The notes under the pieces were generated by a model. The model searched no databases and was not told the origin of the DNA. It saw only the letters and a program-made list of their open reading frames with translations. Source: Vicinamibacteraceae bacterium (lineage in GTDB: Bacteria > Acidobacteriota > Vicinamibacteria > Vicinamibacterales > JAFNAJ01). From it: a stretch of 64,000 bases of DNA. This document shows, in pieces, positions 24,643-59,277 of this stretch (position 1 is its first letter; the number at the start of each line of letters is the position of its first letter). The stretch is from positions 17,291 to 81,290 of the forward strand of contig JBDIBB010000002.1 in the NCBI GenBank assembly GCA_039812685.1, written 5' to 3'. Position numbers and translations under genes: made by a program.

Positions 24643-24648
24643 CATAAT
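24643..24648 (+). promoter_or_regulatory. -10 box CATAAT, 6 nt upstream of the ATG (leaderless-type promoter)
   Basis: GGGCATAATGCCCGCATG. The sequence is fixed by three overlapping track translations (KGHNARM, MPACP, GHAGIMP). Confidence 0.45.
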
Positions 24649-24654
24649 GCCCGC

Positions 24655-25764: not shown

Positions 25765-25797
25765 CGCGAACGCGGGGCCGGGCGCGGCTCGACGGCC

Positions 25798-25803
25798 TAT
25801 AAT
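25798..25803 (+). promoter_or_regulatory. -10 box TATAAT, 6 nt upstream of the mntA GTG
   Basis: CCTATAATCGCGTCGTG. The sequence is fixed by overlapping track translations (PIIASW on plus, TTRL-stop on minus). Confidence 0.45.
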
Positions 25804-25809
25804 CGCGTC

Positions 25810-36301: not shown

Positions 36302-37480
36302 CTACTGCCCCGGCTGACGCTCCGGGACCTGCCGTGGCTGCTGGCCGCGCCCTCGAAGGCGCGGCCGCCAGCCCTCATCGAATGCCGTCCCCACCACGAG
36401 GCTCGCCACGCCATCGTAGCTGCGCAGTCCCTCCGCCACGGTGTTGGCTTCGAGAAACCGGCGATAACCCGACCAGGCCACGTGACGGACCATCGGGCGC
36501 ACCTGCTCGAGCCGGCGAGCGATCGCCCGGTAATCCTCACGTGGTCCTTCATCCAGCCCTGCCATCACCGCCTTCGCCGCCGGCAGCGGCAGCATGGCGG
36601 TCAGGTGAGGCAGCAGGTCGAGCCACGCGCTGTAGCGCACCTGGGGCGTGCCCCGCATGCCGGCGAGCCACCCGATGAACCCGGCTTCCGCCTCGTGCGC
36701 CAGCCCGGCCAGGTGTCCCCACTCGTGCAGCAGCATCGCGGGCCGCTCGAAGGGCAGCGCCGAGGGCACGATGATCACGTCGAGCGACCATGGGTTGGTG
36801 AAGCCTGCGATGCCGGCCGCCTCGAACCATGGCCCGAGCCACGTGCGCTTGGGGAGACCGGCGACGAACCCGTCGGGCAGCGCGATTTCCCGAAGCGCCT
36901 CGGCCAGCGCCGGCGCCATCCCGGCGCGAAGGGCTTCACCCTCGGCCCATGGGCGGTCGTGGGTCCCGGCGTACAGGGTGTTGAGTTCGCTGACGGCTGT
37001 CGCGGCCGCACGGCGCACCGCCGCCTCGTCCACGCGCGCGGGATCGTGATCGAGCCGGGTGGCCAGCGGCGCCCGGCGGTAGTTGAGTCCCCACGATGCG
37101 AGGAACCACGTCGTGCCGGCGCCAGCCAGCGCCGCCAGGATGAGCGTCGAACGCAGCGCAATCCGCAGCCTCGCGCCCGTGGCGGCGCGGCGCCACGGCG
37201 CCGCGGCCAGCCAGCCCAGCGTGGCCAGCACCAGGGCCAGCAGCGGATCGGCCATCGCCCAGGGCAGGCGGTTGGTCAGCCCCGTCAGCCGGGGCTGCCA
37301 CCAGGCGTAGAGGCCGAGCGAGTAATGGCGCTCGACGAACGTCCCATCCCAGGGACCGATCCACGCCGCCGCCGCCAGGCCGCCGGCGATCAGGGCGCCG
37401 AGGGCCGGACAGACGAGGCGGTCTCGTCGCCGGTGATCAGCCGGATGCTGCGCTGGTACGTGAAATACGCGAACGTCCAC
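36302..37480 (-). CDS. DUF3810-like membrane protein with HExxH motif
   Basis: N-terminal TM segments and MLLHEWGHLAGLAHEAEAGF. The start is uncertain: GTG 37480 would overlap the NDH-2 3-prime end by 91 nt. Confidence 0.6.
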   Translation of the reverse strand: MDVRVFHVPAQHPADHRRRDRLVCPALGALIAGGLAAAAWIGPWDGTFVERHYSLGLYAWWQPRLTGLTNRLPWAMADPLLALVLATLGWLAAAPWRRAATGARLRIALRSTLILAALAGAGTTWFLASWGLNYRRAPLATRLDHDPARVDEAAVRRAAATAVSELNTLYAGTHDRPWAEGEALRAGMAPALAEALREIALPDGFVAGLPKRTWLGPWFEAAGIAGFTNPWSLDVIIVPSALPFERPAMLLHEWGHLAGLAHEAEAGFIGWLAGMRGTPQVRYSAWLDLLPHLTAMLPLPAAKAVMAGLDEGPREDYRAIARRLEQVRPMVRHVAWSGYRRFLEANTVAEGLRSYDGVASLVVGTAFDEGWRPRLRGRGQQPRQVPERQPGQ

Positions 37481-38706
37481 TGGACGAACACCACGATGCG
37501 ATTACGGAACCCCGTCAGTTGCCAGATGTGGACGAACAGCCAGAACAGCCACGCGGGGGATCCGCGAAGCCGCACGCGGCCGAGGTCGGCCACGGCACGG
37601 GCGCGCCCGATCGTGGCGAGGTTGCCGAGGTTGCGGTAGACGAACGGCGCGCGGGGGGCCCCGCGCAGCGTCGCCAGGACGTTGCGCGCGGCCCAGGCGG
37701 CCTGCTGCATGGCCACCTGCGCGACGCCGGGCAGCAGCCGTCCATCGCCGGCGTCGAACGCCGCCAGATCTCCGACCACGTAGACGTCGTCACGGCCGGG
37801 AATCGTCAGGTCGGGCCTGACCTTCACGCGCCCGGCCCGGTCGACCGGAACGCCCAGCCCGCGACCGAGCGGCGAGGCGGCGACGCCGGCGGCCCAGATG
37901 ATGGTGGCCGCGTCGATCGTCTCCTCGCCGATGCGCACCCGGCCGGGCTCCACCTCGGTCACCTGGGCACCGAGGCGAACCTCCACGCCCAGCTCGCGCA
38001 GCGCCTCCTCGGCGTAGCGGCGCAAGGGTTCGGGAAACGCCGCCAGCAGCGTGGGTGCGCCCTCCAGCAGCACCACCCGGGCCGATTCGGGAAAGATCTC
38101 CCGGAATTCCCTGCGCAGCGCGTGACGGGCGATCTCGGCGAGCGCGCCGGCCATCTCCACGCCGGTGGGCCCGCCGCCGATCACCACGAACGTGAGCAGG
38201 CGGCGCTGCTCCCGCCCATCGGCGGTCCGTTCGGCCCGCTCGAAGGCCAGCAGCACCTCCCGCCGAATCGTCAGCGCATCGTCGAGCGTCTTGAGCGCGG
38301 GCGCCGCGGCGCTCCACTGGTCGTGACCGAAGTAGGAATGCGTCGCCCCGGCGGCGATGATGACGGCGTCGTACGGCAGGTCGCCGATGTCGAGCCGTAC
38401 CACCTTGCGTTGGACGTCGACGGCCTGCGCCTCGGCGAGCAGCACCTGGACGTTCGGCTGACCGCGCAGGACGTAGCGGATGGGCGATGCGATATCGCCC
38501 GGCGAGAGACCCGCCGTCGCCACCTGGTAGAGGAGCGGCTGGAAGAGGTGATGGTTGCGGCGGTCCACCAGCACGACGTCCACGCGGGCGCGACGCAGCG
38601 CCCGTGCGGCGCTGAGCCCCCCGAAACCGCCGCCGACGATGACGACGCGCGGCCGGCCTGTGGCCCGCAGAGGCAATGGAAACGGCGCTTCCTTCGACAC
38701 CAGCAC
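37390..38706 (-). CDS. ndh: type II NADH dehydrogenase (NDH-2)
   Basis: RVVIVGGGFGGLSAA, HHLFQPLLYQVATAGL, a second dinucleotide fold VVIGGGPTGVEMAG, and a C-terminal GFRNR membrane-anchor region. I guess the start at GTG 38706, because the track start 38850 overlaps the upstream permease. Confidence 0.85.
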   Translation of the reverse strand: MLVSKEAPFPLPLRATGRPRVVIVGGGFGGLSAARALRRARVDVVLVDRRNHHLFQPLLYQVATAGLSPGDIASPIRYVLRGQPNVQVLLAEAQAVDVQRKVVRLDIGDLPYDAVIIAAGATHSYFGHDQWSAAAPALKTLDDALTIRREVLLAFERAERTADGREQRRLLTFVVIGGGPTGVEMAGALAEIARHALRREFREIFPESARVVLLEGAPTLLAAFPEPLRRYAEEALRELGVEVRLGAQVTEVEPGRVRIGEETIDAATIIWAAGVAASPLGRGLGVPVDRAGRVKVRPDLTIPGRDDVYVVGDLAAFDAGDGRLLPGVAQVAMQQAAWAARNVLATLRGAPRAPFVYRNLGNLATIGRARAVADLGRVRLRGSPAWLFWLFVHIWQLTGFRNRIVVFVQWTFAYFTYQRSIRLITGDETASSVRPSAP

Positions 38707-38767
38707 CTCGACCGCCGCGCACGCCGCGGCGCGGCGCGGTCCGCCGGTTGGCCGCCGCGCCTGTCTT

Positions 38768-40057
38768 CTATTCGTACCGTAATGCCTCCACCGGGTCCAG
38801 CCGGGCGGCCCTGACCGCCGGCCAGTAGCCGGCGAGTACGCCCGTGCCAACCGCCCCCAGCAGTCCGCCGGCCACCACCCAGAGCGGCGGCATCGCCGAG
38901 AACGCCGGGGCCAGCACGGTGACGACGACGCCGATGCCCGCGGCCAGCCCCAGGCCGGCCACGCCGCCGATGGCCGAGAGCAGCACGGCCTCCAGCAGGA
39001 ACTGCCGCAGCACCTCGCGCCGGCGCGCGCCCACCGCCAGGCGCACGCCGATCTCGCGGGTGCGCTCGGTCACGCTGATCAGCATCACGTTGGCGATGCC
39101 GATGCCCCCGATGAACAGGCTGATGGCGGCCAGGCCGAGCGTGACGCCGCCGATGGCGGCGCTCACGCGATCGAATTGCGCGATGATCTGGTCGGCCGAG
39201 GAGAGGCGGAAGTCGTCCTCCTCGCCGGGCGCGAGCCCGCGCAACTGGCGCAGGATGGCTTCGGTCTCCGAGCGCGCCTGCTCGCGGCGTCCTGGCTTCG
39301 CCCGGACGTAGAGCACGGTGTTCTCGGCCTGCGGGAACTGCCGCGCCGTGGTGCCCAGCGGAATCGACATCACCGCGTCCTGCCGGTTCTCGCCGAAGAA
39401 CCCGCCCTTGCGCGGGGCGAGTTCGCCCACCACGTAGTAGGTCGCGCCGGCCAGCACGAAGGTCCGCCCCACGGTGCGGCCGCGAGCGCCGGTACCGAAC
39501 AGCGCGGTGGCGAGGTTGCTGCCGATGACCGCGACGCGCGCGCCGACGCGGTCCTCCACGTCGGTGAAGGGCCGTCCCGCCGCGAACTCGGCCCCGACCA
39601 CCTCGAAGAAGTTCGGCGAGGCGCCCTCCACGAGCAGCGTATCCACCTCAGTGCCGCCGGCGCGCGCGGTGAGGGCGCGGCCCGACACGACGGTTGGCAC
39701 GATCACCTGCACCGCCACCTCGCGCACGGCCTCACCCAGGCGCGCGATCGGTCCCGCGAAGGCCGGCTCGAGCGGCAGCCTGCGGGCTTCGCGCTCGGAC
39801 GCCGGCTGGTAAGGATCCCCGCTCAGGTGGAAGGCGAACACGTTGTCGGTGCCGAGATCGCGGAACATCTCGGCAATGGAGTTGCGGACGCCCGCCAGCA
39901 CCGAGGCCACCAGCACGACGGTGACGATGCCGATGACGATGCCGAAGATGGCGAGCGCGGATCGGGCCGGCTGCGTGCGCAGCGAGTCGACGGCCAGCGC
40001 CGCCGACTCGCCGAGGGCAGTGCGCCAGCGGCGGAAGGCTGAGGCGTCCGACTGCAC
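38768..40057 (-). CDS. MacB-type ABC transporter permease (MacB_PCD + FtsX), no ATPase domain
   Basis: N-terminal TM helix ALAIFGIVIGIVTVVLV, a periplasmic core domain, and the C-terminal FtsX signature SVTERTREIGVRLAVGARR. GTG start at 40057, 10 nt after the upstream stop. Confidence 0.85.
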   Translation of the reverse strand: MQSDASAFRRWRTALGESAALAVDSLRTQPARSALAIFGIVIGIVTVVLVASVLAGVRNSIAEMFRDLGTDNVFAFHLSGDPYQPASEREARRLPLEPAFAGPIARLGEAVREVAVQVIVPTVVSGRALTARAGGTEVDTLLVEGASPNFFEVVGAEFAAGRPFTDVEDRVGARVAVIGSNLATALFGTGARGRTVGRTFVLAGATYYVVGELAPRKGGFFGENRQDAVMSIPLGTTARQFPQAENTVLYVRAKPGRREQARSETEAILRQLRGLAPGEEDDFRLSSADQIIAQFDRVSAAIGGVTLGLAAISLFIGGIGIANVMLISVTERTREIGVRLAVGARRREVLRQFLLEAVLLSAIGGVAGLGLAAGIGVVVTVLAPAFSAMPPLWVVAGGLLGAVGTGVLAGYWPAVRAARLDPVEALRYE

Positions 40058-43060: not shown

Positions 43061-43069
43061 ACTCCCCCC

Positions 43070-45157
43070 ATGAGTACCTCCAAGCGCCTGCACTGGGGGC
43101 ACAGCACGATCGACACCTCGTGTCCCCTGGACTGCCCCGACAACTGCTCGCTGAGCGTGACGGTCGAAGACGGGCGCCTCCGCTCCATTGGCGGATCGTC
43201 GGCCACGCCGACCACCGGCGGCTTCATCTGCGCCAAGGTGCGGGGATTCGCCGCGCACGTCTACGACGAGCGCCGGGTGAGGTACCCTCTCGTCCGCAAG
43301 GGCCCGAAGGGCCGGGGAGACTTCGCGCGCATCGGCTGGGACGACGCGCTGGAGCGCATCGCGCAGGAGATCGAGCGCGCGCGGGCGCAGTGGGGCGGCG
43401 AGTCGATCCTGCCCTTCTCCTACGGCGGTTCCAACGGCCTGCTCAGCCAGGATTGTGCCGACGCCGTGCTGTTTCGCGGCCTCGGCGCCTCGCGCCTGGC
43501 CCGCACCGTGTGTGCCGCGGCCACCGGGGCGGCGGCGCAGGCCATGTACGGGAAGATGCCGGGCGTCGGCTACGAGGACTACGTCGACGCGCGGCTGATC
43601 GTCATCTGGGGCGCCAACACCACGACGACCGGCATGCACCTCGTGCCGTTCATCACGACGGCCCGCGCCAGGGGCGCCGCGCTGGTGGTGATCGATCCGC
43701 GCCAGACGAAGCTGGCCCGCCTGGCCGACCTGCACCTGCCGATCCGGCCGGGGACCGACCTGCCGGTGGCGCTGTCGGTCATCCGGCACCTGTTCGAGCA
43801 GGGCCATGCCGACCTGCGGTTCCTCGCCGGACACACGACAGGCGCTGGCGACCTGCGGGCCGCCGCGCTCCCGTGGAGCCTCGAGCGGGCGGCGGAGGTC
43901 GCGGGCATCGAGACGGCCGCGCTGCGCCGGTTCGCCGATCTCTATGCGGAGCGGACCCCCTCGGTCATCCGCTGCGGCTCGGGACTGGAGCGCAACCGCA
44001 ACGGCGGCAACGCCGTGCTGGCCGTGCTGGCGCTTCCGGCCGTCGCGGGCCGGTTCGGGGTGCGCGGCGGCGGCTACACGCTGGGGAACTCCGCCGCGTA
44101 TGGCCTCCAGGACAAGGCGTGGATCGACGTGGCCGAGCCGCCGACGCGCCTGCTCAACATGAACCGGCTGGGCCGCATCCTGTGCGAGCCGCAGAATCCT
44201 CCGGTGAAGGTGCTGTTCGTTTACAACTGCAACCCCGTCGCCACCATGCCCGATCAGCGCCGGGTGATCGAGGGCCTCTCTCGCGACGATCTCTTCACGG
44301 TGGTCTTCGACCAGGTGCGCACCGACTCGGCGGCGTTCGCCGACATCGTGCTGCCGGCCACCACCTTTCTCGAGCACTACGACATCTCGACGGGCTACGG
44401 CGCCTACGGCGTCCAGATGGTGAAGCCGGCCATCGAGCCGGTGGGCGAGTCACGGCCCAACGTAGAGGTGTTCGCCCGGCTGGCGGCCCGCCTGGGCGTC
44501 ACCGCGACCAGCGAGGACGACGAGGCCGAGACGATCGCCCTGCTGCGGGTGGCGGCCGCGCTGCCGGCCGGGTTGGGCGAAGCGGTGCTCCAGGGGCGCC
44601 CCGGCTATCCCGCCTTCGGCACGCGGCCGGTGCAGTTCCACGACGTGTTTCCCGGCACGCCCGATCGCAAGATACGGCTGTTTCCCGTGGAAGCGGCGAC
44701 CGACGCGCCGGCCGGCCTCTACGGCTACCAGCCCGATCCCGGGAGCCCCGAGTTCCCGCTGGCGCTCATCTCGCCCGCCAGCGACCACACGATCAGCTCG
44801 ACGATGGGGCAGTTACCGGCCGAGGCCGCGTCGCTCTGGCTCCATCCCGACGACGCGGCGGCACGTGGGATCGGTGCCGACGACACCGTGCGCGTCCACA
44901 ACGCGCTCGGCGAGGTGCACTGCCGCGTGCACCTGACCGAGCGCGTGCCGCCCGGCACCGTGAGCCTGCCGAAGGGGCTCTGGCGGCAGAGCACGCTGAA
45001 CGGGGCGACCGCCAATGCGCTCGCCCCCGACACGGCGACCGACCTCGGCGCCGGCGCCTGCTTCAACGACGCGCGCGTCGAGGCGAGCCGGATCGTCGGC
45101 GCGCAGTTCGAGGGGCAGGCGGTGTCGCTGTTCGTCGCGGGCCTGCGGCGTCACTGA
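43070..45157 (+). CDS. molybdopterin oxidoreductase (DMSO reductase superfamily) with N-terminal 4Fe-4S motif
   Basis: CPLDCPDNCSL...GGFICAKV cysteine motif, RIGWDDALERIAQEI, the MGD-binding regions and a C-terminal beta-barrel (VRVHNALGEVHCRV). Confidence 0.9.
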   Translation: MSTSKRLHWGHSTIDTSCPLDCPDNCSLSVTVEDGRLRSIGGSSATPTTGGFICAKVRGFAAHVYDERRVRYPLVRKGPKGRGDFARIGWDDALERIAQEIERARAQWGGESILPFSYGGSNGLLSQDCADAVLFRGLGASRLARTVCAAATGAAAQAMYGKMPGVGYEDYVDARLIVIWGANTTTTGMHLVPFITTARARGAALVVIDPRQTKLARLADLHLPIRPGTDLPVALSVIRHLFEQGHADLRFLAGHTTGAGDLRAAALPWSLERAAEVAGIETAALRRFADLYAERTPSVIRCGSGLERNRNGGNAVLAVLALPAVAGRFGVRGGGYTLGNSAAYGLQDKAWIDVAEPPTRLLNMNRLGRILCEPQNPPVKVLFVYNCNPVATMPDQRRVIEGLSRDDLFTVVFDQVRTDSAAFADIVLPATTFLEHYDISTGYGAYGVQMVKPAIEPVGESRPNVEVFARLAARLGVTATSEDDEAETIALLRVAAALPAGLGEAVLQGRPGYPAFGTRPVQFHDVFPGTPDRKIRLFPVEAATDAPAGLYGYQPDPGSPEFPLALISPASDHTISSTMGQLPAEAASLWLHPDDAAARGIGADDTVRVHNALGEVHCRVHLTERVPPGTVSLPKGLWRQSTLNGATANALAPDTATDLGAGACFNDARVEASRIVGAQFEGQAVSLFVAGLRRH

Positions 45158-45163
45158 CGTCGC

Positions 45164-48100
45164 TCACCTGAGCATCACCAGCCGTCCCACGCCCTTTTCG
45201 CGCATCGCGGATTCGAAGGCCGGCACGTCCTTGTCGTACACCGCCCTGAGTTCGGCCTTCACCTGGTCGAGTTCTCCGGTCAGCTTCCGGTAGACCTCGA
45301 TCTGCGGCTGCGTCGGCGGGTAGTCCGAGTTGCCCGCGACGTCGCCTCCGCCGCTGCTCACCTCCGCCTGCAGCCAGACGAACAGCAGGTAGAGCTTCAT
45401 CGCGCCGCGGAACGATTTCGCGTCGCCTTCCGCGATCGTCGGCTGCAGCAGCTTGTCCTCGGCGGCGCGCAGCCGCGCGTCCAGGCCGTCGATCGCCTCG
45501 AGGGTCGCCTTCGTGTCGGCGGCACCGGCCTTCTGCCGCGCGCCGACGGCCTTCCTCATGTCCTCGAGTTGCTTCCGCGACCACTCGATCTGGTTGATCA
45601 GGTCCGCCGCCTCGTTGATGCGCTCGTAGATGTCGAGCGAGAGCTTCGTGGAGGCCACCACGTCGGCCTCGCTCGCCGGGGTGTTCGGATCCTTGAGCAC
45701 CGTGACCGTCGCGGAGAACTCGCGGCCGCCGGCCGACAGTTTCACCGCATAGGCTCCCGGCGCGACGAGCGGGCCGCGCTTGGGCGTATCGATGCCGTAG
45801 TAGAGCACCGGCCGCGTCTCCTTCCCGACGAAGCGCTTCTCGGTCCAGATCTCCGGATTGCCTGGCGGGGTCGTCCGCAGCTCGACCTCTCGCGTCGGCT
45901 CGTGGCGCAGGTCCCACCACACGCGGTTGAGTCCCTGGCGCTTCGAGCCGCGGATGGTCCGGATCGGCCGGCCGCCGGCGTCCGAGATGGTCAGCGTCAC
46001 GTCGCCTTTCGGCACCTCCCCGAGCCAGTAGTCGATCGACGCGCCGTAGTTCGGGTTGCGTCCCATGGCCGCGCCGGACGGCGCGAGGTCGCGCCGCTCG
46101 ACGTTCCGGAATCGGTAGGCTGGCCGCGGCTCGAGCAGCGTCACGGGCGCCTGCCGCTGCGCGTCGGTCAGCCGCTGCAGTGGTGTGACGTCGTCCATGA
46201 TCCAGATCCCGCGCCCGTAGGTGCCGACGACGAGATCGTTGAAGTGGGGCTGGATCTCGAGCCAGTAGACCGGTGCGTGTGGCAGGTTCTGCTGGAACGG
46301 CCGCCACGTGGCGCCGTCGTCGAACGACAGGAAGAGACCGTTCTCCGTCCCGGCGTAGAGCAGCCCCTGGCGCTTCGGATCCTCGCGGAGCACGTGCGTG
46401 TAACTGAGCGGCCCCTTCTCGATGCCGCCGGTGATCGGCGTCCACGTCCGGCCGTAGTCGGCCGTCTTGAAAAGCCACGGATCGAAGTTGCCCACCTGGT
46501 GCCCGTCGATGGCGACGTAGCAGACTCCCGGCGCGTGCCGCGACGGCTCCACGCTGTTGACGTTCATCTTCGGCGGCAGCCCCTTGATGTTCGGCGTGGT
46601 GTTGGTCCACGTCGCCCCGCCGTCGCGCGTCACCTGCACCTGGCCGTCGTTGGTGCCGGCCCAGATCACGCCCTTCTCGATCGGCGACTCCGCGATGGAG
46701 AAGACCGTGCCCGCGTACTCGACGCTGAGGTTGTCGACGGTGAGCCCGCCAGAGTCACCCTTCATCGACGGGTCGTTCAGCGTGAGATCGGGGCTGATGG
46801 CCTGCCACGTCTGGCCGCCATCGGTGGTCCTGTGGACGTACTGGCTGCCGACGTAGACGGTGTTGTGATCGTGGGGCGAGATCGCGATCGGGAAGGTCCA
46901 GTTCATCCGCAGCTTGATCTCGCCGGCCGGCGCGCCCATCGTCCGCTCGGGCCAGGGGCTCACCGTGCGTGACATCCGCGTCTTCAGATCGTGGCGCTCG
47001 ACCACGCCGGCATAGCAGCCGCCCCAGATGATGTCGGGATCGACCGGATCCGGGATGTTCCAGCCGGTCTCGCACCCCGCGGTGGTCGTCCAGAGGCTGG
47101 GGTGGATGCCGCCGGAGAGGCTGTTGCTGGGCGCCCGCAGGGATGCGTAGTCCTGCATCTGGCCGTAGACGTAGTACGGCACGCGCGTATCGGTCGCGAC
47201 GTGGTAGATCTGCCCGATCGGCAGGCGCATCATGTTCCACTCCTCGCCGCGAGTGGTGGAAATCATCACGCCGAGGTCGTTGGCGATCATGATCCGCTTC
47301 GGGTTCTTCGGGTCGGCCCACATGTCGTGGTTGTCGCCGCCCCAGCGCACCTGGTCGGTCGTCTCGCCGCCGTCGTAGGTGACGCCCATGCCGTTGGACG
47401 GGAAGTAGACCTGGTCGGCGTCGTCGGGCATGACGAGCATGCGCGTGTAGTAGTGCGGGCGCTCGTTCAGCAGGCGGCTCGTGTTGACCCTCCGCCACCG
47501 CTCGCCGCCATCGTCGCTGCGCCAGAGCGAGCCGCGCTCCCCCGTCTCGATGAGGGCGTAGACGCGGTTCGGGTTGCTGGGCGCGACCGACACGGCGATC
47601 TTGCCGAGCGGCGAGGCCGGCAGCCCGTTGCCCTCGAGGCGCTTCCAGGTGAGGCCGCCGTCGCGCGACACGAACACGCCGCTGCCAGGTCCGCCACTGA
47701 CGCGGCCCCACGTCTTGATGTCGATCTGCCACGTGCCCGCGAACACGTTGTCCGGGTTCACGGGATCCATCGCGATGTCCGACGCCCCGGTCTCCTCGTT
47801 GACGAACAGGACGCGTGTCCACGTCTTCCCGCCATCGGCCGTGCGGAACACGCCACGCTCCTGCTGCGGGCCATAGGCGTGGCCGATCGCCGCCGCGAGC
47901 ACGACGTCGGGGTTGGTGGGATGGATCAGGATGCGCGCAATGCGCCCCGTCTTCTCGAGGCCCATGCGCGTCCAGGTCTTCCCCGCATCCGTGGACTTGT
48001 AGATGCCGTCGCCCACCGACACGTTGGAGCGGATGAACGGTTCGCCCGTCCCCACCCAGACGACGTTCGGATCGGAGGGCGCGAGTGCGATGGCCCCAAT

Positions 48101-48400
48101 CGACTGGGCGGTCTGCTCGTCGAAGATCGGGCGCCAGCGGGTGCCGCCGTCGGTCGACTTCCACACGCCGCCCGAGGCAGCGCCGACGTAGTAGACGTTG
48201 CTGTCGCCTGGCACGCCGGCGACCGCGCTCGCGCGATTCCCCGGCGGACCCACGTAACGGAACGTCAGCGGGCCAAACGAATCGCGGCTCCCGGCCGTGC
48301 GATCCGGCCCGGATTCCTGTGCCGCAGGGCGCGGCGAACCCAGGAACACAAACACCGCGACGAGCCCGACGATAGCGAGTCCTGCATGTCTGATGCGCAC
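45164..48400 (-). CDS. sortilin/VPS10-like BNR-repeat beta-propeller protein, secreted
   Basis: Repeated SxDxGxTW motifs (KSTDGGTRW, KSTDAGKTW, RTADGGKTW, SRDGGLTW, RSDDGGERW, TTDGGQTW, TRDGGATW, TADYGRTW, SFDDGATW). GTG start at 48400 is preceded by AGGAGGGGAGCAC; the signal/TM segment is GLAIVGLVAVFVFLG. Confidence 0.85.
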   Translation of the reverse strand: MRIRHAGLAIVGLVAVFVFLGSPRPAAQESGPDRTAGSRDSFGPLTFRYVGPPGNRASAVAGVPGDSNVYYVGAASGGVWKSTDGGTRWRPIFDEQTAQSIGAIALAPSDPNVVWVGTGEPFIRSNVSVGDGIYKSTDAGKTWTRMGLEKTGRIARILIHPTNPDVVLAAAIGHAYGPQQERGVFRTADGGKTWTRVLFVNEETGASDIAMDPVNPDNVFAGTWQIDIKTWGRVSGGPGSGVFVSRDGGLTWKRLEGNGLPASPLGKIAVSVAPSNPNRVYALIETGERGSLWRSDDGGERWRRVNTSRLLNERPHYYTRMLVMPDDADQVYFPSNGMGVTYDGGETTDQVRWGGDNHDMWADPKNPKRIMIANDLGVMISTTRGEEWNMMRLPIGQIYHVATDTRVPYYVYGQMQDYASLRAPSNSLSGGIHPSLWTTTAGCETGWNIPDPVDPDIIWGGCYAGVVERHDLKTRMSRTVSPWPERTMGAPAGEIKLRMNWTFPIAISPHDHNTVYVGSQYVHRTTDGGQTWQAISPDLTLNDPSMKGDSGGLTVDNLSVEYAGTVFSIAESPIEKGVIWAGTNDGQVQVTRDGGATWTNTTPNIKGLPPKMNVNSVEPSRHAPGVCYVAIDGHQVGNFDPWLFKTADYGRTWTPITGGIEKGPLSYTHVLREDPKRQGLLYAGTENGLFLSFDDGATWRPFQQNLPHAPVYWLEIQPHFNDLVVGTYGRGIWIMDDVTPLQRLTDAQRQAPVTLLEPRPAYRFRNVERRDLAPSGAAMGRNPNYGASIDYWLGEVPKGDVTLTISDAGGRPIRTIRGSKRQGLNRVWWDLRHEPTREVELRTTPPGNPEIWTEKRFVGKETRPVLYYGIDTPKRGPLVAPGAYAVKLSAGGREFSATVTVLKDPNTPASEADVVASTKLSLDIYERINEAADLINQIEWSRKQLEDMRKAVGARQKAGAADTKATLEAIDGLDARLRAAEDKLLQPTIAEGDAKSFRGAMKLYLLFVWLQAEVSSGGGDVAGNSDYPPTQPQIEVYRKLTGELDQVKAELRAVYDKDVPAFESAMREKGVGRLVMLR

Positions 48401-48598
48401 GTGCTCCCCTCCTGCGCGAAGGATGATACGCCCTTCACCGGCGTCTCCGGTGCGATCGGCCATCGCACCGCCGGTACGGCCTCAGGCGGGACACGTCCGA
48501 AACGAACCGCGCCGGTCCACCACGGTGGAACCGGCGCGGTTGGCGGGAGCAGGCAGGAAGACACTCCGCCGGCGCGAGGCGCCGGGAGCGGATGTCGC

Positions 48599-49244: not shown

Positions 49245-49553
49245 ATGAGCAACGAAGGATCGGCGGGCACCCCATCGGGCCCCCGCATGGTGAATTGCGT
49301 CAAGCTCGGGCGGACGCTGCCCGGCCTCGACGAGCCGCCGTGGCCGGGTGAAATCGGCCAGCGCATCTACGAGAACGTGTCGGCCGAGGCGTGGGCGCTC
49401 TGGGAAGAGCGTATGAAGATGATCCTGAACGAGTACCGCCTGATGCCGTTCCAGAAGGAGGCCCGGGAACTCGTGCAGAAGCACATGGAGGATTTCTTCT
49501 TCGGCGAGAACGCCGCGCTGCCGCCCGGCTACGTGCCCCCCAGGTCGAAGTAG
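49245..49553 (+). CDS. yggX: Fe(2+)-trafficking / oxidative-damage protection protein YggX
   Basis: MVNCVKLGRTLPGLDEPPWPGEIGQRIYENVSAEAWALWEERMKMILNEYRL aligns with YggX. AGGAG lies before ATG 49245; an alternative start is 49287. Confidence 0.85.
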   Translation: MSNEGSAGTPSGPRMVNCVKLGRTLPGLDEPPWPGEIGQRIYENVSAEAWALWEERMKMILNEYRLMPFQKEARELVQKHMEDFFFGENAALPPGYVPPRSK

Positions 49554-49697: not shown

Positions 49698-50993
49698 TCA
49701 GGCCATTGGCAGTGCCGAATCGAGCGTGAACCTGAGCAGGCCGTGGGCGTCGTTCACCGCCCGCACTGCCTCCTCCGGCGTCGCGCCGCGCGCGAAGATG
49801 AAGCCCGGGTAGCTGTGCCCCTCGGGCAGGGGCTCGAGCAGTTGCCCGGGCTTGGCCGTGATGATCACGTCGGTGATCCCCGGCACGGCGAGGGCCTGCT
49901 CCACCCCTGCCGTTTCGCGATAGAACCCCCGGCCGGGTACCGGCAGCATCATGACGGCCGAGGCTCCCGCCTCGCGCCGGAAGCCGTCGAGCGGTTGCCC
50001 GCAGGCATGGCGCAGCAGCAGGTGCTCGAGCGACTCGGTCTCGTCATCCGGCGACCGGAAGCGGAGGCTCCGGGCGCAGAGGCCGCCGATGGGCCTGGCC
50101 GCCACCTCGAGCACGAAGATCCCGCGCTCGTTCACCCGGCACTCGGCGTGGATGGCGCCATGGTGCAGGCCGATGGCCAGTGCGGCGTGCGCGACGGTTT
50201 CCGCCATGCCGCGCTGGGTCGCCTCGTTGAGTCCCGCCGGGGTGACGTAGACGGTCTCCTCGAAGAACGGGCCGTCGAGCGGCACCGGCTTGGCGAAGAT
50301 CGCCAGCACGCGCAGCGCGCCCCGCTCCATCACGCCCTCGAGCGCGTACTCGAGCCCCGGCACGAACCCCTCCACCAGCACCTCGTCGTGAGCGGGATCG
50401 CGCTGCACGCGCACGTCCGGGCTCTGCAGGATGCGGCGCAGCCGGGCCAGCGCCTGCGCGAACTCGTCCGGGGTGTCGGCGCGCATCACGCCGCGGCTGG
50501 CCGAGAGCGCCAGCGGCTTCACCACGCACGGAAACCGCACGCGCGCGGCGAACTCGTGCATCGGCGCATCGATCGGCATCGACACGAACCACGGCACGGG
50601 CAGGCCCGCGGCGATCAACCGTCCCCGCGTGAGCAGCTTGCTGGCAGCCACCTCGGTTCCCTGGGGCGGATGGAAGGGCAGCCCCAGAGTGGCCGCCACG
50701 TGGGCCGCCAGCCGCGCCGGGCGATCGCCGACCGCCACCACGCCATCGGCCGGCCGTCCCGCCGTGGCGTCCCGTACCCGCCTGAGCGAGAGATCGGGAT
50801 CGTGGAACTTCACGGCGATCGCCCCGTCGCGCCAGATGTCGCCAAGGCGATGGCAATGATCGGTGGCGTAGACGAGGTCGACGCCCAGCGAGGCGGCGGC
50901 CTCCTCGAACGCCCGCGCCTGGTACCCCGTGGTGGCCGTGAAGAAGAGAATGCGCTTGGAGGCGGTCGGCCCCGGGTGTTCGGCGTCAGTCAT
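49698..50993 (-). CDS. ATP-grasp domain protein (unknown ligase)
   Basis: Pre-ATP-grasp region ILFFTATTGYQARAFEEAA and ATP-grasp core FPCVVKPLALSASRGV...VLVEGFVPGLEYALEG...LEVAARPIGG. I place the start at MTDAEHPG; the track TTG start at 51122 overlaps the upstream gene. Confidence 0.8.
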   Translation of the reverse strand: MTDAEHPGPTASKRILFFTATTGYQARAFEEAAASLGVDLVYATDHCHRLGDIWRDGAIAVKFHDPDLSLRRVRDATAGRPADGVVAVGDRPARLAAHVAATLGLPFHPPQGTEVAASKLLTRGRLIAAGLPVPWFVSMPIDAPMHEFAARVRFPCVVKPLALSASRGVMRADTPDEFAQALARLRRILQSPDVRVQRDPAHDEVLVEGFVPGLEYALEGVMERGALRVLAIFAKPVPLDGPFFEETVYVTPAGLNEATQRGMAETVAHAALAIGLHHGAIHAECRVNERGIFVLEVAARPIGGLCARSLRFRSPDDETESLEHLLLRHACGQPLDGFRREAGASAVMMLPVPGRGFYRETAGVEQALAVPGITDVIITAKPGQLLEPLPEGHSYPGFIFARGATPEEAVRAVNDAHGLLRFTLDSALPMA

Positions 50994-51082
50994 CGATCTG
51001 GGCGAATGCGGGCGCGGGCCGCCAGGCGCATGCCGGGCGCCGCGCGCGTCCCGCGGCTGCGCGGCACGTCCACCACGAACGG

Positions 51083-52447
51083 CTAGACGAGAGCCACCTG
51101 CTCTCGCGTGGGCTCCGCTCAACAGTACCAGGGTTCATCGAGCCAGGGAATGGCCGCACGATCCGGCACGTCGGGCGGCCGCGGCAGCCGGCCGCCCGCG
51201 TGGAGTTCGAAGAGGTTCACCACGCCCTCGAAGATCTCCCGGCGCGGCGCGCCCGCGCGCGAGGCGACGAACCGCTCGACGTCGGCCTGCAACCCGTCCA
51301 TCACCGGCTCCGGATGCGGCCACGGGTGCACCAGTCGCTGCGCGTCGAACGGCCCGACCATCGCCCGCATCTCCGGCAGATCCAGCAGCCGTGAGCCAGC
51401 CGGAATCAGCAGCCGCAACGCGAGCTGGATCGACGGCACGCGTTCGATCAGGCCCAGGCCCGCTATCGCCTGCAGGAACCGGCCGTAGCCCTCCAAAGTG
51501 ACCCACGGCGTGAAGGCGACGAAGGTGGGCGCCAGGGGCACGCCCGCCTGCTCGCACAGCGCGATGGCCCGCTCGGCCTCGGCCCCGGTGTGTCCCTTGG
51601 CCAGCCGCGCCAGCACCCGATCGTCGAAGGATTCGATGGCGCTGGTCACGAACAGGCACCCGGTGTCGCGCAGGCGCGGCAGCAGCGCGGCGTGCTTCAG
51701 CAGGTGCTCCACCTTGATGGTGACGTCGTAGGTGAGGCCGCCGAAGCGCTGCGCCAGGCGCTCGACAATCGTCAGCGCGTGCCGCGGGCCGTTGAGGAAG
51801 TCCGGGTCGCCGAAGGTCACGTGAAGGGCGCCGGCCTCCACCTGTCGCGCCACGTCCTCCAGCACCACGTCAGCGGAGACGATGCGCAGGTGTCCGCCGT
51901 AGACGGGCACCACGGGGCAATGGCGACACAGGTGCAGGCAGCCGCGCGAGGCCTCGGTGTAGCCCGCCACGCGACGCGCGCCGTTGGGAAGCCTCAGCCG
52001 TGCGTAGCGCTCGAGCGGCGGCAGGTCGCTGCGGTCGGGGACGACGAAGTCGAGCCGCGGCAGGCGCCCGGCCGGGCCATCGGCGCGCTCGCCCGCGGCG
52101 ACCCCGCAGAGGTCGGCTTCGAACTCGGCGCCGAGCACCTCGTCGACGCCGGCCTCCCGGAGCAGGCCCTCGTTCACCGGCGCATAGAGCCCGTAGGCGC
52201 AGAGCGCGGCGCCGGGCGCCGCCTCGCGCACGCGGGCGATGAGCGGCAGGGCCAGGCGCGTGGCGGTGTGCATCGGCAGGTGGAAACCCACCAGGGCCAC
52301 ATCGTCGAGATCGCGTGTCGACAGGGGGGTGCGCGACGTGTCGATGCAGCGGACGTCATGCCCCTCGCGGCGCAGCCATGCCGCCGGCGATGCCAGGCCG
52401 AACGGCTGGCGGCCAAGTTCATAGGTGCCAATCAGGAGGATCCGCAC
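51083..52447 (-). CDS. B12-binding-domain radical SAM protein, probable CUAEP-tail selenoprotein (UGA at 51119..51121 read as Sec)
   Basis: N-terminal B12-like domain (RILLIGTYELGRQPFGLASPAAWL) and radical SAM CLHLCRHC (Cx3Cx2C). The ORF-track stop is TGA, followed in frame by GCG GAG CCC ... TAG, giving WYC-U-AEPTREQVALV. A hairpin lies downstream. The core 51119..52447 has confidence about 0.85; the Sec extension about 0.55. Confidence 0.6.
51087..51107 (-). promoter_or_regulatory. SECIS-like stem-loop downstream of the in-frame UGA
   Basis: RNA CGAGAGC-AGGUG-GCUCUCG forms 7 bp plus a possible G-U pair. The stem starts 11-12 nt after the UGA, and the apical loop carries GGU about 23 nt from the UGA. 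Confidence 0.45.
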
Positions 52448-52571
52448 CCTCCGATTGTCGCCCCTGGCACGCCTGCCTGTGAAGGGGCCGTGCCCGCGCG
52501 TGCCGGGGCGCGGCGGCGTATGATCGCCACGCGCGCCCCTGTCCAGGGCCGGCACCGCGGCCGTCGCCGCG

Positions 52572-53987
52572 GTGTGCGCGCCATTCATGCTGCAACTGGT
52601 CGCCCCGCGCATCGTCCCGCCGCTGGATCCCGGGTTCCGTCCACCGGCGCTCGCCCACCGCCAGTGGCTCGCCGACCTCGAGGCGTCGGGCCACGGCGTG
52701 CCGCTCGTCCTCGCCCTGGAACGCGCCGACGGCGCGCGGTCGCGCGTCGAGACGCGCGTCGTGCCCGAGCGACATCCGCGCTTCGAAGAGGGCGTCCACT
52801 ACGCCGAGCGCCTGTTCAAGTTCCTGCTGTGGCAGTGGGGCGGGTGGCGGGCGTGGGTCGGCGGGCCGGCCGCGATCGGCCGCGCCCTGGCCGCCGCCTA
52901 CTCGCCTGGCGGCGCGCGCGCCTTCGATCACCGCTTCATGAGCGAGGACGTCTTCGGCCGGCCGTTCACGGTGATCGCGTGCGAGGCCGATGCGGTGCCG
53001 GCGGCCGTGGAGGCGCCGCGCCCGATCGGCCGTCACCTCGACGGCTGCCGGGTGGGGTTCGACCTGGGCGCCTCCGATCGCAAGGCATCGGCGGTGATCG
53101 ACGGCGAGGCTGTCTACTCCGAGGAGGTCGTGTGGGCCCCGTCGGCGCAGGCCGACCCGGCCTACCACCATCGCGAGATCATGGCCGCGCTGCGCACGGC
53201 GGCGTCGAAGATGCCGCGGCTGGATGCCGTGGGCGGCAGCGCCGCCGGCGTCTACATCAACGACGAGGTGCGCATGGCCTCGCTCTTCCGCGGCGTGCCC
53301 CGGGATCGCTTCGGCGAGGTGCGCTCGCTGTTCCACCGCATTCGTGCGGAGCTCGGCGTGCCGCTGGTCGTCGTGAACGACGGCGACGTCACGGCGCTCG
53401 CCGGATCGATGTCGCTGGGCGAGAACAGCGTGCTCGGCGTGGCGCTCGGGTCGAGCGAGGCGGCTGGCTACGTCGACGCGGACGGCAACATCACGGGCTG
53501 GCTCAACGAGCTCGCGTTCGCGCCGGTCGACTACCAGCCCGGCGCGCCCGCCGACGAGTGGTCGGGCGACCGCGGCGTGGGCGCGCGCTACTTCTCGCAG
53601 CAGTGCGTCTTCCGGCTCGCCCCGCTGGCGGGCATCGATGTCCCGCCCGACCTGGCACCGGCCGGCCGGCTGAAGTTCGTGCAGGCCCGCCTCGAAGCCG
53701 GCGATTCGGGCGCCGCGGCCATCTGGCAGACGATGGGCGTGTATCTCGGCTACACGGTCGCGCTCTACGCCGGGCGCTACGACGTCCGGCACCTGCTGAT
53801 CCTCGGCCGCTGCACCTCGGGCCGCGGCGGCGACATCCTGATCGGCGAGGCACAGCGCGTGCTCGCCCTCGAGTTCCCCGAGCTGGCCGGGCGGATCGCC
53901 CTGCACCTGCCGGACGAGAAGAACCGCCGCGTGGGCCAGTCGGTGGCCGCCGCCAGCCTGCCCGCGCGCGCCGGAGAACCGCGATGA
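52572..53987 (+). CDS. ROK-family (sugar kinase-like) protein with about 150-aa N-terminal extension
   Basis: ROK/ASKHA motifs VGFDLGASDRK, VVVNDGDVTALAG and GVALGSSEAAGYV. The N-terminal region ERLFKFLLWQWGGWRAWVGG is unassigned. The start could be ATG 52587. Confidence 0.7.
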   Translation: MCAPFMLQLVAPRIVPPLDPGFRPPALAHRQWLADLEASGHGVPLVLALERADGARSRVETRVVPERHPRFEEGVHYAERLFKFLLWQWGGWRAWVGGPAAIGRALAAAYSPGGARAFDHRFMSEDVFGRPFTVIACEADAVPAAVEAPRPIGRHLDGCRVGFDLGASDRKASAVIDGEAVYSEEVVWAPSAQADPAYHHREIMAALRTAASKMPRLDAVGGSAAGVYINDEVRMASLFRGVPRDRFGEVRSLFHRIRAELGVPLVVVNDGDVTALAGSMSLGENSVLGVALGSSEAAGYVDADGNITGWLNELAFAPVDYQPGAPADEWSGDRGVGARYFSQQCVFRLAPLAGIDVPPDLAPAGRLKFVQARLEAGDSGAAAIWQTMGVYLGYTVALYAGRYDVRHLLILGRCTSGRGGDILIGEAQRVLALEFPELAGRIALHLPDEKNRRVGQSVAAASLPARAGEPR

Positions 53988-54838
53988 CCTTCAGCCTGCC
54001 CACCGCCGAACTCTACGTCCCCGATGGACTGCCGCCCGCCGAGGCCCTGGCGCGCACCACCCACCTGGCCATCGGCGCGCACCAGGACGATCTCGAGATC
54101 ATGGCCGCCGACGGCATCCTGCAATGCTTCCAGCGGCCCGACCGGTGGTTCACCGGCGTGGTGGTCACCGACGGGGCCGGCTCGCCGCGCGAGGGCCTCT
54201 ACGGGCAGTACACCGACGAGATGATGCGGGCAATCCGGCGTGTCGAACAGAAGAAGGCGGCCTTCGTCGGCGATTTCGCCGCCGCCATCCTGCTCGACCA
54301 CCCGAGCGCCGCCGTCAAGGATCCGCGCGAACCCCGGCCGGTCGACGACCTCGTGCGGGTGCTCGAGGCGACGCGCCCCGAGGTGGTCTACACCCACAAC
54401 CTGTGCGACAAGCACGACACGCACATCGCCGTCGCGTGGCGCGCCATCGCGGCGATCCGCCGCGTCGCGGCCGCGTCGCGGCCGCGAAGACTGTACGGCT
54501 GCGAGGTGTGGCGCAACCTCGACTGGCTGCGCGACGAAGAGAAGATCACCTTCGATCTGTCGGCGCACCAGAACCTGCAGATGGCCCTGGTCGGCGTCTT
54601 CGACTCGCAGATCTCGGGCGGCAAGCGCTACGACCTGGCCACCTGGGGACGCCGCAAGGGCAACGCGACCTACGCCGCCAGCCACGGCACCGACCAGGCC
54701 GAGTTCGCCAGCTACGCCATGGACCTCACGCCGCTGGTCGAGGATCCCTCGCTCGATCCGGTGGCGTTCGCGCTCTCGGCGATCGAACGCCTGCGCGACG
54801 ATGTCGCGGCGCGCCTGACGAGGTTCCGGCCCGCGTAG
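53984..54838 (+). CDS. PIG-L/LmbE family deacetylase
   Basis: LAIGAHQDDLEIMAADG (AHPDDE-type zinc motif) and a later HDTH. ATGA overlap with the ROK stop. This is the real part of track ORF 51590..54838. Confidence 0.8.
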   Translation: MTFSLPTAELYVPDGLPPAEALARTTHLAIGAHQDDLEIMAADGILQCFQRPDRWFTGVVVTDGAGSPREGLYGQYTDEMMRAIRRVEQKKAAFVGDFAAAILLDHPSAAVKDPREPRPVDDLVRVLEATRPEVVYTHNLCDKHDTHIAVAWRAIAAIRRVAAASRPRRLYGCEVWRNLDWLRDEEKITFDLSAHQNLQMALVGVFDSQISGGKRYDLATWGRRKGNATYAASHGTDQAEFASYAMDLTPLVEDPSLDPVAFALSAIERLRDDVAARLTRFRPA

Positions 54839-54947
54839 ACACAACTCCCGTGCCGCCGGCCTCGCCTCCCCGCCCCGACAAGGCACCTGTCATGGGCCCG
54901 CGGTCGGCCGTGTCCAGGTCCTGCCCGCGGTGATAGACTCGCGCGCC

Positions 54948-56264
54948 ATGAGCCAGGACGCGACCTCCCGGACCTGCAGCCAGGTGCCCCTGTCGCAGCG
55001 GTGGAAGGAGATCCGTGACGGCTTCTCGCGGCCGTTCTGGGTCGCCAACCTCACGGAACTGTTCGAGCGCCTCGCCTACTACGGCCCGCAGGCGGTGCTC
55101 GCCATCTACCTGCACGAATACCTGGGCCTGAGCACCGACCAGGCCACCTGGCTCATCGGCTACTACGGCTTCGTCGTCTGGTTCATGCCGGTGATCGGCG
55201 GCGCGGCCGCCGATCGCTTCGGGTTCCGCCCGACGCTGGCCGGGGCGTTCGTCCTGCTGGCGCTCGGCAACTTCCTGCTGGGGTCGCTGTCGGCGCCCTG
55301 GATGGCCGGCGTGCGCGAGGCGCTGCCGCTGTTCGCGCTGATGCACCTGGTGATGCTGATCCCCGCGATGGGCCCGGCCGTGGTCAAGCCGGTGGTCGTC
55401 GGCACCACGGCGCGCGCGGCGAAGGAGAACGTCCGCTCGATCGGCTACTCGATCTACTACACGGTGGTGAACATCGGCGCCGCGATCGGTCCGCTGGCGG
55501 CCTCCTTCGTCCGGACGTCGGTCGGCGTCGAGAAGGTGTTCCTCGTGAGCGCGGTCACGATGCTCGCCATGGCGGTCGTGACACTGCTCTTCTACGAGGA
55601 GCCCGCCGTGGATGCCTCGGCGCCGCGCGTGGCGAGCGCGGGCGAGGCGCTGCGCAACCTGGTCCGGGTGCTGGGCGACGTGAAGTTCGTCAGCTTCCTC
55701 GTCATCTTCTCGGGCTTCTGGGTGGTGTTCTGGCAGCAGTACATCTCGCTGCCGATCTACGTGCGCACCTACGTCGATCCCGACGCCAACATCGACCGCC
55801 TGCTGTCGGTGGAGGCGACGACGGTCATTCTCCTCACCTTCATCGTGAACTACGTGACGCGGAAGGTGCCGGCGTTTGCCGCCATCATCGCGGGCGTGCT
55901 CATCTCCAGCCTGAGCTGGCTCGCGCTCACGCTCGGCTCGGACGTGCCCTACATCGTCGTCGCGCTGATCGTCCTGGCCATCGGCGAGGTGGTGCAGGCG
56001 CCGCGCTACTACGAGTACATCTCGCGGCTCGCGCCACCCGGGCAGCAGGGCCTGTTCATGGGCTACGCGTTCCTGCCGATCGGCATCGGCTACCTGCTGG
56101 CCGGGCCGAGCGCCGGGCGGCTGCTGCACTACTTCGGCGAGGTGCGGCAGAAGCCGCACGAGATGTGGTTCGTCATCGCCGGCGCCGGGCTGCTGACCTC
56201 GGCGCTGCTCGTCGTCTACGACCGGTTCGTGCGCCCGAAGGACGCCGGTCCGGCCGCCGCGTGA
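54948..56264 (+). CDS. POT/PTR2-family MFS transporter (peptide/H+ symporter type)
   Basis: ELFERLAYYG (ExxERFxYYG signature), FGFRPTL and about 12 predicted TM segments. Confidence 0.85.
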   Translation: MSQDATSRTCSQVPLSQRWKEIRDGFSRPFWVANLTELFERLAYYGPQAVLAIYLHEYLGLSTDQATWLIGYYGFVVWFMPVIGGAAADRFGFRPTLAGAFVLLALGNFLLGSLSAPWMAGVREALPLFALMHLVMLIPAMGPAVVKPVVVGTTARAAKENVRSIGYSIYYTVVNIGAAIGPLAASFVRTSVGVEKVFLVSAVTMLAMAVVTLLFYEEPAVDASAPRVASAGEALRNLVRVLGDVKFVSFLVIFSGFWVVFWQQYISLPIYVRTYVDPDANIDRLLSVEATTVILLTFIVNYVTRKVPAFAAIIAGVLISSLSWLALTLGSDVPYIVVALIVLAIGEVVQAPRYYEYISRLAPPGQQGLFMGYAFLPIGIGYLLAGPSAGRLLHYFGEVRQKPHEMWFVIAGAGLLTSALLVVYDRFVRPKDAGPAAA

Positions 56265-56285: not shown

Positions 56286-56654
56286 CTACCGCTGGTGCTT
56301 GTGGAACAGGTCGACGATCTCGTCGTACATCACCTCGGCCTCGGCCGGGCCACGCCGGATGGCGGCCGTCGCGCAGTACTTGAGGTGGTTGCGGAGCAGT
56401 TCGCGGGCCACCGCGCGCAGCGCCTCCTGCACTGAGGAGATCTGCACCAGGATGTCGGCGCAGTAACGCTCCTCGTCCACCATCCGCTGCAGGCCGCGCA
56501 CCTGTCCCTCGATGCGGCGCAGGCGGGTGACGGCGCGCCGCTTCACGGCGCCGTCGACGGCGACCGCATGGCGTCCGCTCTCGCCCGCCTCGCATGCGCA
56601 CTCGGCCTGGCGGATGGATGGCTCCGGCAATTCGGATTGTCGGCGTCGTGACAT
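56286..56654 (-). CDS. csoR: CsoR/RcnR-family metal-sensing repressor
   Basis: RLRRIEGQVRGLQRMVDEERYCADILVQISSVQEAL...HLKYC gives the C-H-C copper ligand pattern. It also has a 35-aa N-terminal extension containing ECACE. Confidence 0.9.
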   Translation of the reverse strand: MSRRRQSELPEPSIRQAECACEAGESGRHAVAVDGAVKRRAVTRLRRIEGQVRGLQRMVDEERYCADILVQISSVQEALRAVARELLRNHLKYCATAAIRRGPAEAEVMYDEIVDLFHKHQR

Positions 56655-56760
56655 GTCGATCCTTCCAATGAGGTGCGGGCGCCGGCGGCGGCGTCAGCGA
56701 CGGGCCGCGCGCGGGCGCGATCCCGGCCTCGCCGCGTCGCGGGCTGGCGCATCGCGTCCC

Positions 56761-59184
<2,424 letters not shown>

Positions 59185-59277
59185 GACTGGAGGTGCCCGG
59201 CAGCCGGCCGTCCGATGGACGACCGGCCGATGTCGGCGACCGACGATGAGCCTGTGCCGGCGCGCGCCGGCCTGCGG

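Follow-up and report, generated by a model that had tools for sequence, protein, structure and literature searches.

The stretch of DNA analysed here, 64 kb from a Vicinamibacteraceae bacterium (contig JBDIBB010000002.1, positions 17,291 to 81,290; referred to below as the window), encodes on its minus strand a radical S-adenosylmethionine (SAM) enzyme whose open reading frame (ORF) appears to end at a TGA codon. This apparent stop is very probably a selenocysteine (Sec) codon, which would make the real protein 12 residues longer than the truncated call. The enzyme fits without peculiarity into a selenoprotein family that is already curated and named, NCBIfam NF040546 (CUAEP/CCAEP-tail radical SAM (seleno)proteins), which has been termed 'uncharacterized' (Haft 2022, bioRxiv 10.1101/2022.07.06.499078). 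The selenoprotein status of the family is already catalogued, and its classification is unchanged by our analysis. What is added is support for Sec read-through from comparison across the family, in the form of hairpin covariation confined to UGA-type genes and of synonymous-site conservation of the tail; support of this kind was not found for the family in the literature searched. Two functional leads also emerge for this large family, namely an apparent sister relationship to ArsL, an enzyme that generates a 3-amino-3-carboxypropyl (ACP) radical, and a conserved L-amino-acid-ligase partner.

The in-frame UGA and the complete reading frame

Read directly from the sequence, the minus-strand frame ends in CCC TGG TAC TGT TGA GCG GAG CCC ACG CGA GAG CAG GTG GCT CTC GTC TAG. 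A preliminary description of the window had pieced together this region (TGT TGA ... GTC TAG), and its reconstruction proves to be exact. The Cys codon TGT (51124-51122) is followed by the in-frame UGA (51119-51121), by a conserved read-through tail of eleven codons, AEPTREQVALV (51086-51118), and by UAG (51083-51085), the true stop codon, at which the similarity of close relatives ends. The C-[U/C]-A-E-P motif (TGT TGA GCG GAG CCC, 51124-51110) lies in frame and aligns with the CCAEP of Cys-type members of the family. With the UGA read as Sec, the complete coding sequence occupies 51083-52447 on the minus strand and specifies 454 residues, with Sec as residue 443.

The gene start is placed at the GTG codon at 52447-52445 rather than at an ATG at 52612, because homologues, as well as an identical 442-residue JGI protein (P0001), begin at VRILLIG. 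The 55 extra residues that the upstream ATG would supply find no support among homologues. A sequencing error as the source of the TGA is excluded, since an independently assembled JGI metagenome contig (L081, 2993 nt) carries exactly the DNA of the window in this region. A crude scan of the window for further ORFs split by an in-frame TGA returned just adjacent genes and antisense frames.

Membership of family NF040546

Against the NF040546 model, for which the curated cutoff is 500 bits, the 442-residue product cut at the TGA scores 563.3 bits, and its match stops at profile position 457. With the tail included and U written as C, the score rises to 585.4 bits and the match covers positions 1-467 of 468. 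The tail is thus worth 22 bits and completes the profile, which itself runs about 11 positions beyond the Cys. The assignment to this family made in the preliminary description thus holds with or without the tail. The CX3CX2C radical SAM motif of the enzyme is CLHLCRHC, the cysteines of which are invariant in our family alignment (A3), and the Pfam Radical_SAM domain (PF04055) is matched with 45.4 bits. The core motif, the C-[U/C]-A-E-P sequence and the eight-residue extension after it are all shared with other members, and there is no difference of substance between them and the window protein.

The eight codons between AEP and the stop had been regarded as a deviation from the family pattern. 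They are instead its normal tail: among the best 120 database matches, 46 of the 50 full-length Cys-type homologues likewise have eight residues past AEP (for example CCAEPNPEQLTLV), and Cys-type C-termini read ...EPWYCCAEPNPEQLTLV or ...CCAEPTEGQVALL. The other 70 of these 120 proteins end exactly at ...WYC, which indicates that they were truncated by gene calling, while the 50 run on as CCAEP.... ORF callers thus systematically truncate this gene at the Cys, and what is dropped is the Sec and the tail, from which the family takes its name and on which its function probably depends. More than 8000 homologues are present in public data. Besides one identical JGI protein, the closest database relatives come from Vicinamibacterales (Acidobacteriota) and share at most 82% identity with the window protein.

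Conservation of the tail past the UGA

Searching a single genome for each species yielded 80 related loci with 49-61% identity, the majority from Acidobacteriota and the others from Chloroflexota, Verrucomicrobiota, Calditrichia, Burkholderiales and an actinobacterium available in culture, Solirubrobacter taibaiensis (KCTC 29222; L051). At the aligned position, 66 of the 80 have TGA and the remaining 14 have TGC or TGT, so that every homologue without the TGA has Cys there. Genes of TGA type occur on the near-complete Vicinamibacterales chromosomes OZ219745.1, OZ242279.1, OZ220728.1 and CAXXVU020000002.1. The preliminary description had proposed looking for Cys at this position in orthologues and for AEP downstream of it, and AEP is indeed kept in TGA-type and Cys-type genes alike.

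The three codons following the TGA always specify A(or S)-E-P in 69 distinct TGA-type sequences, while their third bases vary freely. Ala is encoded by GCG (39), GCC (17) or GCA (9), Glu by GAG (48) or GAA (21), and Pro by CCC (39), CCG (12), CCA (9) or CCT (9). Because these codons vary at third bases while the amino acids stay, selection appears to act on a translated peptide. The Gln at position +7 is likewise retained in 67 of the 69. Closer to the window, four relatives with 70-82% protein identity (L082-L085) preserve AEPTREQVAL[VI], with changes that are synonymous or pair-preserving, and directly past the second stop the similarity of their DNA is lost.

The genetic code is not reassigned, since TGA is the stop codon of 25 of the 34 window ORFs and also terminates the tail itself in 24 TGA-type loci. 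Two features of a bacterial selenoprotein gene, an in-frame UGA aligned with Cys and protein-level conservation past the UGA, are present here. The reading of the radical SAM ORF as truncated at a Sec codon, first put forward in the preliminary description, is accordingly supported by the family model, by the distribution of TGA and Cys codons across the related loci, by the conserved tail, and by the covariation described below.

A hairpin after the UGA resembling a bacterial selenocysteine insertion sequence

A hairpin resembling a selenocysteine insertion sequence (SECIS) lies within the tail (51087-51107, minus strand) and can be written GCGAGAGC-AGGUG-GCUCUCGU, with the 5' arm at 51107-51100, the loop at 51099-51095 and the 3' arm at 51094-51087. 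It comprises eight pairs, including one G.U, and a loop of 5 nt; the stem begins 11 nt and the loop 19 nt past the UGA. The stem core CGAGAGC/GCUCUCG closes the loop AGGUG, and the G.U pair extends it. Folded alone, the hairpin has an energy of -13.1 kcal/mol (z = -2.94; 2 of 200 shuffles as good), and the rule script evaluates it at -12.5 kcal/mol. The bacterial SECIS (bSECIS) rule, as given in PMC13188914 (after Zhang and Gladyshev), specifies a loop of 3-9 nt, a stem of 4-16 bp, a G in the first two loop positions, a spacing of 16-37 nt and an energy of at most -7.5 kcal/mol. The window hairpin satisfies this rule, with a loop of 5 nt, a stem of 8 bp, a spacing of 19 nt and an energy below the limit.

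Like bacterial SECIS elements of the Escherichia coli fdhF type, the hairpin is a stem-loop inside the coding region, located right after the UGA, and its 5-nt loop has G at position 2 followed by G or U. It differs from them in being short and simple and in lying wholly within the eleven-codon tail, with a single nucleotide between its end and the stop codon; its binding by SelB is putative.

Comparison across the family provides the strongest support for this element. In a gap-free alignment of 67 TGA-type sequences (A1; helix columns 21-28 and 34-41), the helix is paired in 73.8% of cells, as against at most 49.4% when the partner is slid by 1-3 columns. Its covariation score is 0.333 compared with 0.173 for shuffles, none of 500 of which reaches the observed value. 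Compensatory changes are evident at pairs 23-39 (CG 25, GC 15, AU 12), 24-38 (GC 23, AU 17, CG 7) and 26-36 (AU 41, GC 9), and the six inner pairs of the helix form its conserved core. Loop position 2 is G in 67 of 67 TGA-type sequences, the next base is G or U in 64, and the UGA-to-loop spacing is 19-20 nt. In 13 aligned Cys-type genes, by contrast, the same helix is paired in 36.5% of cells, equal to shuffles and slid controls and thus at background. Locally, TGA-type genes fold at -11.0 kcal/mol and Cys-type genes at -5.5 kcal/mol (p = 3e-6), and the two types also differ in their in-register pairs (p = 6e-7). The hairpin that the preliminary description had noticed about 11 nt after the UGA, with its 5-nt loop AGGUG, is therefore confirmed as a feature that covaries and is confined to TGA-type genes.

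With the window left out, the remaining 66 TGA-type members served to build a covariance model, which was run on both strands of the 64 kb. A check of this kind had been suggested for 51060-51125, and the model returned a unique strong match there (51080-51121, minus strand; 55.5 bits, E ~1e-18) in which all 7 modelled pairs are standard. The runner-up match in the window scores 10.8 bits.

A competing helix, in which GAGCC of the AEP codons pairs with GGCUC on the 3' side of the hairpin (51110-51115 with 51085-51095, minus strand), was also considered. It is paired in 79% of cells and appears in the minimum-energy fold of some members. This pairing was rejected, as 372 of 500 shuffles reach its covariation; since there is no covariation beyond shuffles, it probably reflects coding or sequence conservation only.

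Two variants of the hairpin occur among the related loci. In a sub-family of eight loci (L027, L031, L057, L058, L063, L065, L068 and L079) the hairpin is GGGACC-AGUU-GGUCCC, with a 4-nt loop and a register shifted by one, and the frame runs well past the usual 11 codons (AEPTRDQLVPIAKAKEAV...) to give a longer C-terminal extension. At another locus (L055, 11348-11398) the codon is of Cys type (TGT) and the in-register hairpin GAGGAGC-AGAUC-GCUCCC is nevertheless retained; this locus may represent a recent Sec-to-Cys switch.

Alternatives to selenocysteine insertion

Several observations speak against Sec at this position. The window DNA has a G+C content of 72%, and in such DNA the hairpin on its own is weak evidence, only modestly above chance: of the window's 1173 TGA triplets, 19.4% precede a perfect hairpin that conforms to the bSECIS rule, and 3.8% precede one at least as stable. 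The fold of the 71-nt context is not unusual (z = -0.62), and the two outer pairs of the 8-bp stem are mostly absent elsewhere in the family. What carries the argument is the comparison across the family. An Rfam scan of the region (E up to 10) and of the whole window (gathering threshold) detected no SECIS or tRNA-Sec family, a null that is uninformative for the hairpin because Rfam has no model of it. No selA, selB, selD or tRNA-Sec gene was found in the window using ARAGORN, NCBIfam models on the large ORFs, tblastn and Rfam, nor was Sec machinery found in the flanks of related loci (ARAGORN on 60 loci, tblastn on all 85). E. coli SelA, SelB and SelD, used as tblastn queries against the window and the 85 loci, gave a generic GTPase match only. 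As the window holds no Sec genes, the Sec-decoding trait of the source organism is presumed, on the grounds that tail and hairpin are both intact and conserved, and its presence is the main residual doubt.

That doubt is the basis of one alternative, in which the locus is a relic: selABCD would have been lost, and termination at the UGA would leave a tail-less enzyme of 442 residues, perhaps inactive or uncoupled in the manner of tail-less ArsL (see below). The lack of Sec genes within the 64 kb is compatible with this, yet the tail and the hairpin are intact, and in the relatives at 70-82% identity they are kept bar synonymous or pair-preserving changes while the flank has fully diverged. An untranslated tail would decay as fast as the DNA past the second stop, and those lineages of the family that have abandoned Sec have a Cys codon instead. 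We therefore consider a relic very unlikely.

A genuine stop is, in our judgement, highly improbable. The protein would then end at ...WYC, as gene callers and the annotation of 70 of the best 120 database proteins have it, at what is also the commonest stop codon of the window, and the conserved 36 nt would serve as an RNA element such as a terminator, an mRNA stabiliser or a signal coupling expression of the downstream ligase gene. Against this, the three codons after the TGA vary almost purely at synonymous sites with A(or S)-E-P kept in the 69 sequences; the same tail is translated in Cys-type homologues and contributes to the family score; no U-run is present 3' of the hairpin; and the hairpin vanishes where a Cys codon replaces the TGA. 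Scarcely more credible is a selenium-free read-through, by hairpin-stimulated near-cognate decoding (for example as Trp or Cys) or by a variant code. DNA cannot tell which residue is inserted, and nothing specific favours this explanation. The code is standard, to judge by the window ORFs and tails that end in UGA; the homologues that lack the TGA all have Cys, the classical Sec/Cys pair; and the bSECIS spacing and loop-G rule holds in 67 of 67 TGA-type sequences. Sec insertion remains the reading that we prefer.

A gene for a pyridine-nucleotide-disulfide oxidoreductase (37390-39069, minus strand) scores 94 bits, with a cutoff of 310, against a domain family found N-terminal to SelD. This similarity is no evidence for Sec machinery.

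Relationship to ArsL and domain architecture

The second-best family model for the window protein is that of ArsL (NF040542), which gives 236.9-237.1 bits over residues 3-388, below its cutoff of 450. ArsL is the closest characterised relative. It has a canonical CX3CX2C motif, yet cleaves SAM to methylthioadenosine and an ACP radical, which it attaches to As(III) bound by a CCxxC tail at its C-terminus; with this tail deleted or mutated, ArsL still cleaves SAM but no longer binds arsenic or forms the product, and it is not described as a user of cobalamin (10.1101/2024.02.01.577332; 10.64898/2026.04.29.721666). The window enzyme resembles ArsL in its homologous Rossmann-like domain and radical SAM core, in the CX3CX2C motif and in a C-terminal tail bearing a vicinal thiol/selenol. 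We regard its family as a sister family of ArsL.

Identity with ArsL itself was considered and rejected, given the score below 450, the different tail and the lack of an ars context.

Besides the CX3CX2C radical SAM core, the protein is predicted to have an N-terminal Rossmann domain that resembles the B12-binding type. An AlphaFold model of a Cys-type homologue (P0020) has a predicted local distance difference test (pLDDT) score of 90.7 overall, and block means of 44-79 over the last ~35 residues; the low C-terminal values in this model would fit a mobile arm. In a Foldseek search with the same model, the best match was AprD4 (6FD2; template modelling (TM) score 0.70), with TsrM, OxsB and MgmA at 0.58-0.66. 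These enzymes have the class B architecture with a B12-binding domain, and the modelled homologue is predicted to share their two-domain fold, with only 13-19% sequence identity. A search of the Protein Data Bank with the radical SAM protein sequence gave no meaningful match. The preliminary description had called the enzyme B12-binding. This may stand for the domain architecture, the best fold match being AprD4, but goes no further: the Pfam B12-binding domain (PF02310) finds no match in the window protein at E values up to 0.01, and ArsL, as noted above, is not described as a cobalamin user. PF02310 is listed for many homologues and is marked as faint where its strength is given.

The downstream L-amino-acid ligase

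Directly downstream of the radical SAM gene, 89 nt after its stop codon, lies a gene for an ATP-grasp L-amino-acid ligase of 431 residues (49698-50993, minus strand) with the Pfam domains ATP-grasp_4, LAL_C2 and ATPgrasp_N. A ligase gene occupies the same position in 55 of the 68 other loci whose sequence extends 2.5 kb or more downstream, next to Sec-type and Cys-type genes alike, and it is also found downstream in the close relatives L082, L083 and L085. The ATP-grasp_4 and LAL_C2 domains are common to the window protein and the L-amino-acid ligases BL00235 (3VOT), BacD and RizA. BL00235, which produces Met-Gly and Met-Met, is its nearest solved relative (E = 7.8e-32). None of the NCBIfam equivalog models was reached by the window ligase.

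Proposed mechanism and function

By analogy with established bacterial Sec decoding, the hairpin at 51107-51087 would be bound by SelB.GTP.Sec-tRNA(Sec) as the ribosome meets the UGA. Sec would be inserted and 11 more codons translated up to the UAG, giving a product of 454 residues that ends in ...EPWYC-U-AEPTREQVALV. The efficiency of UGA-Sec recoding in bacteria is reported as 30-40% (PMC4513850), and a truncated product without the tail may therefore be made too.

The apparent sister relationship to ArsL and the conserved ligase partner together suggest a role for the tail in holding a substrate. As with the tail of ArsL, the vicinal Cys-Sec pair on its mobile arm would hold a soft substrate atom at the active site or deliver it there, and a methionine-like amino acid formed in this way would be the substrate of the downstream ligase. 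The window enzyme may thus work like ArsL. We advance the whole of this proposal, a Cys-Sec tail that presents the substrate atom and a ligase that acts on a methionine-like product, tentatively, as a possibility to which we would give somewhat less than even chances. It draws on analogy, and several points count against it: the enzyme fails the ArsL cutoff; its tail, WYC-U-AEPTREQVALV rather than RCCLKC, offers two ligands, one of them Se, and not three; and no arsM or other ars family is found near the gene among the NCBIfam matches of the window ORFs. A further difference from ArsL is that the partner of the window enzyme is an L-amino-acid ligase and not a methyltransferase. As an alternative role, the Sec might form part of a redox-active selenenylsulfide arm. 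Such an arm is known from thioredoxin reductase.

A broader scheme, more speculative and on present evidence unlikely, is that the CUAEP enzyme and the ligase constitute a widespread two-gene pathway of soil bacteria, in which the ACP group of SAM would be transferred to a soft atom held by the Cys-Sec pair and the resulting methionine-like amino acid converted into a dipeptide. If this were true, the atom held could be a metalloid, a chalcogen or a metal, and the dipeptide might be, for example, an antimetabolite in the style of arsinothricin or bialaphos. The family would then represent a second, much commoner group of radical SAM enzymes that use the ACP radical, and its Sec would be used catalytically as a substrate-holding ligand.

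Neighbouring genes

A gene for a YggX-type Fe(2+)-trafficking protein (49287-49553, plus strand) converges on the radical SAM-ligase pair, an arrangement found in 46 other loci. Beyond it, a cytoplasmic-looking molybdopterin oxidoreductase (43061-45157, plus strand) is syntenic in 16 loci; the window has a large BNR/sortilin-repeat gene (45164-48481, minus strand) inserted between the two.

On the other side of the pair, a divergent three-gene operon occupies 52572-56264 on the plus strand. Its first gene encodes a protein of 471 residues that has no Pfam or NCBIfam match and in which ASKHA/ROK-like motifs (GFDLGASD, VVNDGDV) can be made out by eye. The second encodes a PIG-L deacetylase (53984-54838) and overlaps the first at an ATGA, and the third encodes a major facilitator superfamily (MFS) transporter (54819-56264). 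This ROK-like/PIG-L/MFS operon was considered as a part of the system and rejected, as it occurs only in close relatives (L082, L083) and not family-wide. A listed ORF of 1082 residues (51590-54838, plus strand) is a chimeric open frame typical of DNA with high G+C content, and its real coding portion is the final 284 codons only, which correspond to the PIG-L gene.

Genes for a CsoR/RicR-type copper repressor and a CopA P-type ATPase (56286-59277, minus strand) are ~4-5 kb away from the radical SAM gene, with the closest edge at a distance of 3.8 kb, and are not conserved beside it in other loci. The heavy-metal-associated (HMA) domain of CopA scores 64 bits against the UxxU metal-binding selenoprotein model, below its cutoff of 95. 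Elsewhere in the window (24469-26217, plus strand), a SufS-like class V aminotransferase gene is immediately followed by one for a homologue of the MntA-type nucleotidyltransferase antitoxin of type VII toxin-antitoxin systems.

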